Origin: Eledone cirrhosa
Lineage: Eukaryota
Assembly: GCA_964016885.1 (NCBI GenBank)
Contig: OZ024740.1
Coordinates: forward strand, 129,332,001-129,396,000
Direction of reading: 5' to 3'
DNA length: 64,000 bases
Part shown: piece after piece, positions 7,494 to 61,349 of the stretch
How positions within the stretch are numbered: the stretch's first letter is position 1
Layout: every line of letters begins with the position of its first letter
Program-made: the position numbers and the translations under genes
The notes under the pieces: model-generated
What the model saw: only the letters and a program-made list of their open reading frames with translations
Database searches by the model: none
What the model was told of the DNA's origin: nothing

Positions 7494-7500
7494 CAGTAAA

Positions 7501-7594
7501 ACCCCGACGGCTGAGCTCAAGCCGTTTCGACGGCTAATTCTGGAGTAAATGAAAATTTATCCTGGTATATAAATAGCCGAGCTTCTCAAGGGGT
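7501..7594 (-). ncRNA. Type I hammerhead ribozyme, U3-A8 core variant
   Basis: ACCCC-UUGAGAA-G(CU)CGGCUA[long loop]UAGCCG(U)C-GAA-ACGGCU UGAGCUC AGCCGU-C-GGGGU. Stems I, II and III all pair; predicted cleavage at GUC between 7506 and 7505. Confidence 0.75.
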
Positions 7595-8770
7595 AATTCC
7601 ATATATGATCAAAGTGATTGTCACATGATTGGTCACAAGTCAGTAGTAATTCTGTGATGGCCAATTAGTGGGGGAGAGGGTGGTTAAACCTGCCAGTAGG
7701 AGAAAAAAGGGCAGGGGGTGGAGTAGACCCAATCATGCGTTGGTAGTGCCGGCTGAAGCTGGGCATGAGGTCAAAGAAGATACTCTGGGGGAGGAAGTCG
7801 AAACGGTAAGTAGAACAATGAGGGGTAAAAATATATATATGAAAAAAAAAATACTGAGAGTGATAAAAAGCGAATAAATGTAAAGAAAAAAATATAAGCA
7901 ATTTCTACGACCTAAGTCTCTAGCTAATGCTAGGCTAGATAAATAAATAAATAAAGAAAGAAAGAAAGAAAGAAATAAAGAAATAAAGAAATAAAGAAAT
8001 AAAGAAATAAAAAAATAAAAAAATAAGTAAATAAACTAGGTGGGACGGAATAGGAAAGACCCTTTTAAGAGGTATAAGTACGTATATCATACGGTGACGG
8101 GTCAACAAATGGGGCCAAAATACTAAAGAAACTACCACGAAATAATTAATAAAGGATTCTACCCCGGGCACAAGGCCAGCAACCACCCAGTGCAGAAAAG
8201 TAAACTAGTACGAGATAATAATTCTGAGTCCCGAAAAAAATATACTAATGCTAACTCTACAAAAGTTCTTATACAAGCCACGCTACAAAAGTTCTTATAC
8301 AAGCTTCATGAAAGTTCGTAGGAGGTAAAAGTAGAATACGGAAAAATAAAATCAGAATCCACCCCGCCCAAAAGAAAAGAGAAGAAAGAAATACTGAAAC
8401 GAGAAAATAAGGCAGAGGTGCCACTAAGAAATATAGAAGGCACGGAAAAAAGGGGGAGCGGTCGGATAAGGGGGCAAGTATCCGAGGTCTAACACAACTG
8501 CTATAAAAAGCGGAGTCCGCCCAATCTATCATAGACTAGGGGAGGGGTGGGGGTACTGAGGCTACAGGGGGCCAAAGGGCTGCCTCGGGTGGGCAAGAAA
8601 AAAATACGCCGACAAAGAAAAAGAACTGGGGTAGAAGGACTAGGGAGGGATGGGGGGAAGAAGGAAATATAGAGGAAGCGATAAAAGAATAAAAAGAAGA
8701 TCTTACGTCTCCCTTGGCAAGCAGGGGTTACCCATTACAAAATCGGCAAGTGGGGTGTTATAGCCCTAGT

Positions 8771-9907
8771 CTACCTCCCCGGGTCATTATGGGGTTTGAG
8801 GGCGAGGTAAGACCTACGCAATCTATGTTTACATGCAGTAACCAGTTCATCTTTCTTGTTTAGGAGTTGGTCCGTCGAAAACAGCATTTGTAAAGTTTCC
8901 TCTGAGCATAAATTGCACGGACGGCGTCCTCCCGTGTAAGAGTTGGATCTGGACAGTAATCTCCAAGTGAGATCATAGGTGATGCTGTTGTCCTTGAGGT
9001 CCCATATGTGGCCCGAAAGTGTAGTGGCGTGACGCCGGGCCGGGTTTCGGAAGGTATGTCTATGTTGGTATAGCCGGGTCTTGAAGTCACATGCGGTTAG
9101 TCCTATATAAACTTTGTTGGAGGTGTCCGTCCTCACGTTGCACTGGTAGATCACATTACGGTCTCTGCATCTGTTGTCGAGGGGGAAATGGATCTATCAG
9201 GACAGTTGCACCTCCTGGTCGGCTCTCCACTGCTATTTAGGTTATTTCCTCCATCGGGGTTGAGTTTTTTGTTGTAAAGAGGAGACGATGATTTGTGCGA
9301 AGTTTGGTGTAGTGCTGTAAGAGAGTTTTATGGTATTTTTGTTTATGTTGTGGTAGCGGTGTTGTAGTGGGAAGTGTTTTTCAATGAGCCTACAGAATAT
9401 TTTCCCGATAGGAGTTGTCACCTCGGCGTTGTGGGGAGGATTGAACCATGTTACATTGCGTGAGCGGCGGTGTCGCCTGCTGGTTCCGCTAATGGGAGCT
9501 GGACAGTAGGATATTTCCTCCCGGAAACCACTCCGCTTGAGGGCCTGGTTGTAATAAGGCGCATGTTCATCATCGAATATCCGCTCATTAGCTGACAAAC
9601 GGGATATGCGGAGGGAAATGTTTTTGACCAGGTTGTTGGTGATGTTCCTAGGATGGTTTGATCGGCGGTGGATGTAGTGCAGGTTGTCATTAGGTTTCCT
9701 GTATGGATAGTACAGGTCGTTTTCGAGGTTGAGGGTAACGTCCAGGAAGTTTACTCGGGTCAGGGACGTTTGTAGGCTTATTTTAAATCCCTAGTCGCGG
9801 AAGAAGCTGATTAATTGTTTCCGGACCCGATCTGTACTACTGGGGTTGTACCCTTTAAGGGTAAGGAGCCCATCATCACGGTACAATCCACCACCGAATG
9901 CAGGAAA
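8771..9907 (-). pseudogene. Decayed PLE RT-thumb-GIY-YIG coding fragment (Naiad-like)
   Basis: [52 protein letters not shown] and CKH motifs spread over several frames; premature TAG at 9791. Confidence 0.9.
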
Positions 9908-10027
9908 TATATCGGTGAACTCAGCCGTCGGTGTCTTACTGGTTCCTATTACCCACTCTACTACCCTAAGTATTGAGTACTTTGGTGCGTTATGGTCTAC
10001 CTGGTTCCTTACCACATTTCCTTCGTT

Positions 10028-43174: not shown

Positions 43175-45316
43175 CTAGCCATCGGGCTTTAACACTGGCT
43201 TAAAGTGTTTGAATGTTGTAAAGTTCTTGTGCATGCAGTTCGGGCAGTGTTCAGAGAGTTTGTTCAGTAGCGGGCCCTTGGCGAATAAAATTTCGTAGCT
43301 CTCTGAAATACAAAGGTCGCAGCCCTTGTGTCCTCCGTTGTAAGAGCGCGCTTTCTGGAGTATTTTCCAATTAAGCGTGAAGGGGGTGGAGTTCCTTTTG
43401 AGGTCCCAAACGTAGGAGGCGAGTGTTGTTTGATTAGATTTATCCGGTCTACTGTAGGAGTGGGTATGGGCATACCAGCGGGTCTTAAAGGTGTTGGAGG
43501 TCATGCCGATGTAAGTTTTTTTGCAATCCTCGGTGCCCGAGATGACATCGCATTTGGATACGATGTCATTTGTGAGGCATTTGTTTTCTAGTGGGCATGC
43601 TTCCTTATTAAGGCAATTACATAGAGCCCCAGTCCGGGGATTGGTTTCGGAGGTGGTTGGCTTATTTAGTTTAGAGTTGTGGTTGGCTATATCCCTAGCT
43701 AGGTTAGGTGTGGTGGAGTAAGACAGTCTTATAGTGTTCTTATTAAAGATGGTGTAGTACCTATGTTGTATGGGGAAGTGTAATTTCAGTAAAGTGAAGA
43801 AAATCCTAGCTATCGGAGTAGATACCTCTCTATTGAAGGGAGGGTTGTACCAGCTAATCTGCCTATGTCTATTCCTCCTCTGCAATTTAGCGGTGGTTTC
43901 TAGGTAAGTTATCTTATCTTTAAATCCGCTACGGGCTAGGGCGTCATTGTAGTAGGAGGCAGACGCATTAAAAATATCTTTGTTGGCGGAGAGGCCAGAT
44001 ATTCTAATAGAGACGCTTTTTACTAGGTTATCAGTAATGTTTTGGGGGTGGTTTGAATTAACATTAATATATTTAAGGGACTCGTTAGGTTTGTGGTACG
44101 GGTAATAGAGGGAAGTATCTAGGTCGAGAGTGACATCTAAGAAGTTGGCCCTAGTCAAATTAGAATCTATAGTTATACTAAATCCTAGATTAGAGAAGAA
44201 AGAGCTTAAGTTTTTCCGAAACCCATCGGTGGTTCTGGGGCTAACCTTATGCAGGGCGAAGAGTCCGTCGTCTCGGTATAAACCTCCAGTTAGGCCGGTA
44301 AAGAGGTTCTTCAGGTTATGTAGGATGTACAGGCCCACAAGGTCGCTAATTTTAGCCGAGTCACTCGCCCCCATGCTAACGTCAAATGGGGTCTGAGATT
44401 TCTTGTTGATCCAGTAAGATCCATCGTGGTATAGAAAGGTCTTACGAGCGTGGAGGATAACAACTTGCTCGGCATCGGTAATGGTGGTAAAATTCCTGGC
44501 AAAGTTAATTGCGTCCTTCAGGAGGGGCTCCGAGATAGAGGCATAGTAGTTTTCTATGTCGAGTTGCAGGAAGCGAGTGTGGTGTTTATCAGGTAATTCT
44601 TGGAACCATGATATTGCCTCAGATGTTCTACTCCAGAGTGGAAGTGGTGAGGCTGCCCGCAATAATGGTAGAACTCTATCCAGGATCTTCTTACTGATAG
44701 AGCCGATGTCAGAACGAGTGGGGTTGATAAGTCTGACTGATGGTTTGTTGAGGAAATTTCCCTTATGGTCCTTCAGGGTAAAGTGCGGGGTCTTTACCCT
44801 TAAAGGTTCGGTTCGGTCATGTAATTTAAGGGACTTGGCGATTTCTTTTCCGGCCGCGTTTGTCTCAGTCAGCGCCCTCTCTATTACCTTTTTGTAGGTG
44901 GTCGTGATGGTATTTTTTGCCAGCTTATTGTAGGTCTGTGGGTCTACCTCATAAACGTTTTTGGTTTTATCGGAGGAGACATAAAGATTAGGGGATTTAT
45001 TTATATTCCGTAATTCGGCATTTAAGTAGGCCTGGAATGGTGTGGTGGCTCTACGGATTTTAATATCCTTGATCATCTTGAAGAGGTCTTCCTCAAATGG
45101 TTGGAGTAGTCTGTTGGTGGGTGGTGTCTTATTCGTTTTGAAGCCGAACTTCTCATCATTGGTAGATGCTACATCAGGGTTGTCGAGGAAGAAGGCCCTC
45201 CATCTAATTCGCTTGATGAACTCGTCGGTACGTCTGATGAGTGTTTTTAAGTATAGTTTCCTTGGAGGGATAGGGATGTTCTTCAAGGAAATATCAAGGT
45301 CGAGTTTGGTCAGCAT
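43175..45316 (-). CDS. Intact PLE polyprotein, 713 aa from the first ATG: reverse transcriptase plus GIY-YIG endonuclease (Naiad-like)
   Basis: [63 protein letters not shown]-x5-[30 protein letters not shown]; no stops or frameshifts. Confidence 0.95.
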
Positions 45317-45446
45317 GGTTTCTTGATGATGGTTATAAGGGGCACAGAGAGTGCTAAGATGTACGTTATTCCGGGTTGAATCGGAGGTAACCACAGTAAG
45401 TAAGGTACTCAATACATAACAGAGTATAACAGTTTTAATATAGATG

Positions 45447-45497
45447 AGATTCTACAGGACTAGAACTGTTTCATTCATTAGAAATCATCAGGAATCT
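45447..45497 (-). ncRNA. Type I hammerhead ribozyme in the 5' pLTR of PLE family 3
   Basis: Same sequence as 39168-39218. Confidence 0.85.
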
Positions 45498-50140: not shown

Positions 50141-50189
50141 GATTCCTGATGATTTCTAATGAATGAAACAGTTCTAGTCCTGTAGAATC
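50141..50189 (+). ncRNA. Type I hammerhead ribozyme in the inverted segment of PLE family 3
   Basis: GAUUC-CUGAUGA-UUUCUAAUGAAU-GAA-ACAGUUCUAGUCCUGU-A-GAAUC. Confidence 0.85.
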
Positions 50190-50202
50190 TCATCTATATT
50201 AA

Positions 50203-51757
<1,555 letters not shown>

Positions 51758-58918: not shown

Positions 58919-58921
<3 letters not shown>

Positions 58922-59054
58922 AACCAGTAAGACCCCGACAGCTGAGCTCAAGCCGTTTCGACGGCTAATTCTGCCTATTACCCACTCTACTACCTCAAGT
59001 ATTGAGTACTTTGGTGCGTTACGGTCCACATGGTTCCTTACCACATTTTCTTCG

Positions 59055-59095
<41 letters not shown>

Positions 59096-59276
59096 AACCA
59101 GTAATTCTGGACTAAAAAAAAAAAAAAAAAAAAAAAAAAGTCCAGAATTAGCCGTCGAAACGGCTTGAGCTCAGCTGTCGGCGTCTTACTGGTTCCTATT
59201 ACCCACTCTACTACCTCAAGTATTGAGTACTTTGGTGCGTTATGGTCCACCTGGTTCCTTACCACATCTCATTCGT

Positions 59277-59353
<77 letters not shown>

Positions 59354-59545
59354 CAAAGGAATTGTGGTAAGCAACCATATGGACCATAACGCACCAGAGT
59401 ATCCAATACTGAGGGTAGTAGAGTGGGAAATAGGAAAAACTATGACCACGACGGCAGAGCTCAAGCCGTTTCGACGGCTATTTCAGTCCAGAAATAGCTG
59501 TCTTAACGCCTTGGGTTCTGTCGTCGGGGTCATACATTTTTCTAT
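58919..59545. mobile_element. Cluster of three miniature PLE family 1 termini (58919-59058 +, 59092-59280 +, 59351-59545 -), each with an inverted 5' piece and separated by (TA)n
   Basis: Each matches 9917-10030 and the GAAACGGCTTGAGCTC half of the 7501-7594 HHR; the 5' half of the HHR core is missing. Confidence 0.85.
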
Positions 59546-59564
59546 ATAAATATATATATATATT

Positions 59565-59630
59565 ATAATAATAAATTAGAAGACTAAAATCCAAAGAAGG
59601 CTCGATAAGGATAAATATATATCAAATAAT
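59565..59630 (-). mobile_element. Family X 3' terminus fragment fused to the 422-bp array
   Basis: ATAATAATAAATTAGAAGACTAAAATCCAAAGAAGGCTCGATAAGGATAAATATATATCAAATA matches 50245-50310. Confidence 0.8.
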
Positions 59631-60021
59631 AAGCATGAAACTAGTACAGCGTGCCTTTGTCAGTGTTGAACTAACGAGCAACGATGATTGCTATACACCA
59701 CGGCTTAATACGGGATGTTTGTTTACAAACACCCCGAGCATTATAATAAATGTTCGTTGAATCCATACGTACATATATATATGTGTGTGCATGTATGTAT
59801 ATATATATACATATTAATGTACGTATGTATACATATATGTATGTACGTGTACATACTTATATTTAAGTAACAGACGTACTAAGAGTGGGAAATGAAATTT
59901 CGTTTCATTTTTTCCGTTTATCGTTTTCGGTGCACCAGGCCGATTAACCCACTCCATATGCAAATTGGGCTACTCAGTCGTTAATATGCATAAGGTGAGT
60001 AGATACGTTCAACAATCTGGC

Positions 60022-60078
60022 AGGAAGGTATGCGTTGCTGACGATAGCTAATAAGCTTGAAACTAGTACATCGTTCCT
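60022..60078 (+). ncRNA. Type I hammerhead ribozyme of the 422-bp repeat
   Basis: AGGAA GGUAUG CGUUG-CUGACGA-UAGCU AAUA AGCUU-GAA-ACUAGU-A-CAUCG UUCCU; cleavage predicted after 60068. Confidence 0.82.
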
Positions 60079-60443
60079 TTGTCAGTGTTTTACAAACGAG
60101 CAACGACAGTTGCTAGACACTACGGCTTAATACGGGATGTTCGTTTACAAACATACTGAGCATTATAATAAATGTTCGGTGAATCCATACGTACATATAT
60201 ATATATATGTGCATGTATGTATATATATATACGTACTACTGTACGTCTGTATACATATATGTATGTACGTGTACATACTTAAATTTAAGGAACAGCCGTA
60301 CTAAGAGTGGCAAATGAAATTTCGTTTCATTTTTTCCGTTTATCGTTTTCGGTGCACCCGGCCGATTAAACCACTCGATATGCAAATTGGGCTACTCAAC
60401 CGTTAATATGCATAAGGTAAATATATACGTTCAACAATCTGGC

Positions 60444-60500
60444 AGGAAGGTATACGTTGCTGACGAGAGCTAATAAGCTTGAAACTAGTACATCGTTCCT
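60444..60500 (+). ncRNA. Type I hammerhead ribozyme of the 422-bp repeat
   Basis: AGGAA GGUAUA CGUUG-CUGACGA-GAGCU AAUA AGCUU-GAA-ACUAGU-A-CAUCG UUCCU; cleavage predicted after 60490. Confidence 0.85.
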
Positions 60501-60710
60501 TTGTCAGTGTTGAACAAACCTGCAACGATGGTTGCTAGACACTACGGCTTAATACGGGATGTTTGTTTACGAACACACCGAGCATTATAATAAATGTTCG
60601 GTGAATCCATACGTACATATATATATGTGTGCATGTATGTATATATATATATATACATACTACTGTCCGTCTGTATACATATATGTATGTACGTGTACAT
60701 ACTTATATAT

Positions 60711-60752
<42 letters not shown>

Positions 60753-61349
60753 ACAATACCACCAGTTATCTCTTCCAATTTCTTTTTCTCTAAGTCTCTC
60801 TTTTTCTCTCTCTCTCTTTCACAACCACTATATCTTTCTCACCCTCTCTCTGTTTATGAAGGTAGCCGGAAAAACCATATATCTCGATGAATCATGTTTT
60901 ATTCCATTTGTATTGCCATTACAGTGTCAACTACCTTTCAATGTATTTTCCCATTAAGCGCCCTTTTCGCTGAATTACGTTACAAACAAGTAAGCAATCA
61001 CAGATATTTAGTAATATATAGATAGATGTATATGGGTGTATGTGTGTTTGTGTGTCTGGCTGTGTGTGTGTAAGCATGAGTGTGTGTGTATATTTACATT
61101 TTAATGTTCGTGAAAATCAACGTAAATGTATATTGTTGAATAACTGTAAGTGTGAATATGCGTAGGAATAAGTATGTGCGTATGCTATCATAAATATATT
61201 TTGATACACATTTTGGAGTTTGTATGTTTATTCAGACATTCTCCAATTTATTTCCATGGGCGACAATATTTCCCGAATATATATATATTTTACAATATTT
61301 ACAATTTAATTATTTTTAATACTTAAAATTTAATTTAATTTTTTCAGTG

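Follow-up and report, generated by a model that had tools for sequence, protein, structure and literature searches.

A retrozyme array of Eledone cirrhosa, most likely nested in the tail of a Hydra-type Penelope element, and the paired internal ends of its copies

For metazoan non-LTR retrozymes, mobilisation by Penelope-type elements (PLEs) has been proposed from co-occurrence and from homology of the pseudo-LTR (pLTR), in reports whose accessible portions hold no map of insertion ends (PMC7229834; preprint 10.64898/2026.07.22.740005). Among PLEs, elements of the Hydra clade are described as units of '<3 kb' with a single ORF carrying RWK-like and DKT motifs, a CxCX5C linker and, at its C-terminal end, a GIY-YIG domain, with (TA)n targets, a tail, inverted 5' copies and a hammerhead (PMC8557442). 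Poseidon of Anolis cuts and extends both target strands in vitro, with a dimer predicted and two internal RT start sites bounding the tail, described as showing neither target homology nor a difference between strands (PMC11167929). Chimeric insertions are described for LINE-1, in an account that associates template switching with pieces in the same orientation and twin priming with opposite ones; its antisense chimeras with tRNA halves, 5S rRNA and U5 are ascribed to twin priming on two RNAs, and carry a duplication around the whole chimera (PMC13174262). Titles and the opening lines of abstracts, a scope that excluded subscription journals, yielded no paper on PLE/retrozyme junction chimeras; supplements may hold end maps.

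Here we describe such a junction in a window of 64,000 nucleotides of Eledone cirrhosa (contig OZ024740.1, positions 129,332,001 to 129,396,000, forward strand), to which all bare coordinates refer; X, Y, P, Q2, R and sites A and B are labels used here. The locus is laid out as follows.

59545-59564, no strand: TA-rich run bordering the X terminus on its outer (3') side
59565-59628, minus: family X arm of 64 nt, 3' terminus (distal site B) of the pseudo-LTR tail of a Hydra-type PLE
59616-59628, plus: 13-bp duplication, left copy (X sequence), its last 2 nt common to the retrozyme
59627-60708, plus: retrozyme array that starts at monomer position 403 and stops at site A (216), about 2.6 monomers of 422 nt in all
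59627-59660, plus: 5'-truncated hammerhead by motif reading, with a cut predicted after 59646; it keeps the 3' half of stem II, GAAA and a palindromic stem III
59856-59862, plus: first of the internal copies of priming site A (monomer about 216-219)
59912-59921, plus: first of the internal copies of priming site B (monomer about 275), lying 59 nt downstream of A
60020-60085, plus: putative type I hammerhead with a CUGAnGA core (motif 1), predicted to cut after 60068
60442-60513, plus: putative type I hammerhead motif 2 (Rfam HH9 and fold), predicted cut after 60490
60704-60716, plus: 13-bp duplication, right copy, its first 5 nt common to retrozyme site A
60717-60748, no strand: (TA)n run past the duplication

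The layout proposed in the earlier note is confirmed in part: a minus-sense family X terminus lies beside a TA run at 59565-59628, recurring in the window at 50244, 56617 and 63876, and passes without a spacer into the plus-sense array, so that the two stand head-to-head with the joint at monomer position 403, in the loop or 3' half of hammerhead stem II. The X arm is 5'-truncated inside an internal AT run of X. The ATAAG microhomology claimed for the joint does not stand, as the exact overlap is 2 nt (TA) and ATAAG would require a 1-nt deletion in X, a variant found in only 1 other of 113 X contexts. The far end of the array does meet (TA)n, as had been stated, but only after the last 13 X bases, TATATATCAAATA, have been repeated (59616-59628 = 60704-60716); the array end at 60708 is itself a site A, and the 5-nt overlap there is predicted to represent primer-template pairing. 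Across 1.12 Mb of loci a script found this 13-mer 92 times in X context and twice outside it, one of the two being the present locus and the other, by eye, a diverged X copy. In a comparison aimed at an empty allele, runs X1 and X12-X14 had virtually no coverage at 60660-60842, and the RAD reads represent other copies of the repeat.

By its sequence the array is a member of the non-LTR retrozymes, with activity of its RNA predicted. Like those described from metazoans (PMC7229834; 10.64898/2026.07.22.740005), it is built of non-coding units a few hundred bases long, arranged in tandem and each bearing a type I hammerhead motif, and has thousands of copies: the period of 422 (2.6 copies) fits tandem non-coding units of about 150-1000 nt, the list of window ORFs holds none of at least 150 aa within the array, each monomer carries a type I motif with a palindromic stem III by sequence and fold, and the hammerhead core has 9,685 exact matches. 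Rfam HH9 matches motif 2 below the gathering threshold (20.1 bits, E 0.061), which no Rfam hammerhead match reaches; Rfam miRNA matches were rejected as low-complexity. Unlike the pLTR homology proposed in the same reports, comparison of the monomer with X and with the pLTRs of the window gave nothing convincing, a single 65% match being low-complexity. A second retrozyme family, of about 469 nt and 61% identical, occurs at L044 (G000:C2:187335813-187338882), where stem II differs yet remains complementary. Long arrays at L153, L154 and L158 (G000:C28), whose monomers mostly differ by 4-9% where those of L156 differ by about 1%, are possible source loci for multimeric templates.

The X terminus is, judged by motifs and features, the 3' end of a 3.25-kb Hydra-type PLE. 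At L143-L145 it is joined to an RT/endonuclease ORF that shares about 50% identity with the one at 43175-45451 in the window, and in L144 X has a single ORF of 708 aa with RWR (RWK-like), DKT, a CxCX5C linker and, at its C-terminus, GIY-YIG; X insertions have (TA)n targets, a pLTR with tail and an inverted 5' copy. X thus resembles the Hydra clade in these respects (PMC8557442), although its unit is slightly above the size given there and a regex search of one copy (L144) found no canonical hammerhead in the pLTR, whereas Hydra elements are described with one. A Naiad identity was rejected, the N-terminal endonuclease and DKA motif that mark Naiad not being those of X. Pfam searches of 6 window ORFs returned no PLE domain and one unrelated match below cutoff. 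The minus-strand ORF at 43175-45451 is intact, 758 aa long and Hydra-type; its family is young, with 131 scored copies that are 91-100% identical over 300 aa, and the pLTR of its element has a hammerhead-like core near 50144-50182. Family Y termini (58920-59543 and 7494-10026) likewise form opposed pairs with two sites about 80 nt apart, and adjoin a truncated PLE RT.

Exact matches to a 29-nt X pattern number 15,521, and 60 X termini were sampled in order along C1 among the first 100 matches listed, omitting loci already sampled. An opposed X arm accompanies 40 of these (38 by script, 2 by eye), with 31 of the opposed arms ending at a second site 83 nt upstream, while 11 of the 60 end in TA and 9 in other sequence; none is paired with the retrozyme.

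The ends of the retrozyme copies were mapped in two sets, set A comprising the first 80 clusters on C1, chosen for an intact hammerhead core, and set B the 31 best-scoring loci. Of the 79 main 3' ends in set A, 72 fall at site A (205-224) or site B (258-276), which together make up 9% of the monomer, rather than at the predicted cleavage point, and 63 of the 79 adjoin (TA)n. The two sets contain 47 two-armed copies, 15 with one end elsewhere and 32 with both ends at the sites, and all 32 of the latter join A with B (A/B 17, B/A 15, A/A 0, B/B 0; Fisher p 1.8e-9); a short arm found later, at L107, may be a B/B exception. Both arms of an insertion come from a single subfamily in 33 of the 33 pairs that are clear, a further 14 among 47-48 loci being unclear or mixed, with 11 and 9 same-subfamily pairs in set A (P about 1e-6), which indicates that one RNA per insertion is the rule. 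Insertion ends at two internal sites, with A paired with B, are what the earlier retrozyme reports, as far as available, leave unmapped. They match the PLE tail and the initiation at two sites and on two strands demonstrated in vitro for Poseidon, although the retrozyme sites differ from these in showing short TA overlaps and in pairing A with B. The two fixed internal ends, mostly before (TA)n, together with A-with-B pairing as in X, indicate that PLE enzymes likely mobilise the retrozyme. That part of the earlier proposal of a Naiad-like machinery is therefore retained, at the level of PLEs and not of Naiad; it is supported by the copy population, and not by the present junction. A two-armed repeat targeting (TA)n, Q2 (L079, L062, L144), has a proximal end resembling retrozyme site B in both subfamily variants and no linked ORF so far; it is a candidate relative or partner.

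For the present locus, we consider it fairly probable that the retrozyme array was target-primed into the AT-rich tail of a short X copy that was already integrated, since the two pieces are opposed, the array ends at site A, and the 13-base X duplication, on this view a target-site duplication, flanks the retrozyme alone and is accompanied by the 5-nt overlap at the 3' end and the 2-nt overlap at the 5' end. On this nested insertion, a PLE GIY-YIG nuclease would have nicked the bottom strand at the first internal TA run of X, and the freed target end would have paired with UAUAU at retrozyme site A. RT would then have travelled along a multimeric or circular RNA for about 2.6 monomers, across two predicted cleavage points, before the end exposed by a top-strand nick 13 nt away annealed via TA to the cDNA end, in hammerhead stem II. 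The family-wide footprint of two internal start sites, (TA)n targets and A/B two-armed insertions points to a Penelope-type enzyme, here probably of a Hydra family, with X as a candidate. Comparable nesting is seen at L286, where a two-armed array interrupts the same X run and X continues on its far side, similarly at L276, and at L128, where the retrozyme sits within another repeat flanked by a 12-bp duplication. Short X arms ending in TA are common (the 11 of 60 above), and where X is followed by a minus-sense retrozyme end a TA spacer intervenes in 20 of 24 matches.

Several observations weigh against nesting. Among 113 X contexts there is none in which a truncation leads into (TA)n at precisely this run, which makes the presumed empty target rare, and informative duplications are uncommon, with 11 candidates in the scanned loci, most of them low-complexity. 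The X arm is not measurably older than the array, showing 0 rare alleles in 63 nt against 113 X copies where 1.6 would be expected at the array's rate (P 0.2), a comparison without power; sequence alone is unable to date the one against the other. Finally, X site B with retrozyme site A conforms to the A/B rule that single insertions follow, and spacer-free X/retrozyme joints without duplication exist at L255, L256, L263 and L264.

These last points favour a single insertion primed on two RNAs, which for the present locus we regard as unlikely, though it is the nearest competitor. Following a double nick in (TA)n, one PLE RT would have primed on X RNA at site B while its partner primed on retrozyme RNA at site A, in a form of twin priming in trans, the second primer having begun by copying 13 nt from the freshly made X cDNA end. 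The opposed orientation and the position of both outer ends at priming sites are those of a twin-primed chimera, with the B/A pairing expected of one insertion, and the orientation is that of the antisense LINE-1 chimeras (PMC13174262). In those chimeras, however, the duplication surrounds the whole, whereas here it surrounds the retrozyme alone, and the extra step needed to produce it is absent from 70 two-armed insertions: no convincing inner-arm duplication was found at the far end of 47 retrozyme and 23 X copies, 6 matches having been dismissed as low-complexity.

Pattern searches for X near retrozyme words (2, 7, 4, 7 and 24 matches, overlapping) identified spacer-free joints without duplication at L255, L256, L263, L264 and L284, the first four being new X/retrozyme mosaics. 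L264 and L256 each have an X site-B arm and a retrozyme site-A arm with (TA)n outside and no TA run or duplication inside. In L263, X site B and X site A are outermost with opposed retrozyme arms inside and two different joints, an arrangement that could also result from insertion of a two-armed array into the middle of a small inverted pair of X arms. In L255, 15 retrozyme bases lie at the joint of two X arms, and a retrozyme copy also lies about 750 nt away. Other PLE-like termini are paired with the complementary site at L140 and L291. Against this, L142 and L257, which break within X's TA runs and end at B, are B/B exceptions to the pairing, and L079 is A/A. An X anchor within 120 nt of the hammerhead gave 7 matches, 5 of them spacer-free and real, and a family Y anchor within 150 nt gave 0; but the excess of X over Y has p 0.001 when calibrated on the abundance of anchors (10 vs 23 in 411 kb) and p 0.09 when calibrated on nested neighbours, and Y in the other orientation gave 14 matches (11 via TA, 2 spacer-free and 1 false), or 2 spacer-free joints among 13 real ones. 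In the unbiased set, 2 of 80 head-to-head joints represent no clear excess. Moreover, 34 of 47 one-armed retrozyme copies are without TA on the 5' side, so that spacer-free 5' joints, usual with any neighbour, can arise by nesting and deletion. Matches at L254, L267 and L294 were discarded as false. L259/L278, L269 and L288 were set aside as evidence on X, since they belong to a different, abundant repeat that includes part of the X tail, an antisense stretch of about 55 nt at L269, L278 and L288.

Insertion on two RNAs is thus possible from the mosaic sequences, with no excess over nesting and deletion demonstrated, and the tabulation of array flanks that the earlier note had called for bears out the (TA)n association but not an enrichment of PLE-terminus chimeras. 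We consider rather unlikely the broader idea that the two RTs of a Hydra-type Penelope complex may carry different RNAs, or may jump from their own RNA to that of the retrozyme, in which case the rare mosaics L263, L264, L256, L255 and possibly the present locus would be single insertions naming X as a mobiliser.

It is improbable that two neighbouring independent insertions were later joined by a deletion, with the far-end CAAA a chance interruption of (TA)n: spacer-free joints of deletion type do occur, at L112, L301 and L306, but the 13-mer is found in none of the further TA tracts that lie outside X, about 2,800 in a count that includes overlap between loci. A single RT that began on X RNA and jumped to retrozyme RNA at ATAAG, as originally proposed, is very improbable, for whilst the joint is spacer-free, the required X deletion exists once in the 113 contexts and same-orientation X-to-retrozyme joints occur at L263 and L284, a template-switch chimera would have both parts in common orientation inside one duplication, and the opposed pieces here would demand an antisense retrozyme template, leaving unexplained both a far end at a normal plus-RNA priming site and a 13-bp duplication around the retrozyme.

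The present locus is accordingly most likely an ordinary nested insertion, and its value lies in a duplication that reveals target priming and in the pointer it gives to mosaics that could identify the partner enzyme. For the retrozyme family, the fixed two-site ends and their A/B pairing provide junction-level evidence for mobilisation by PLEs, which has so far been proposed from co-occurrence and homology.
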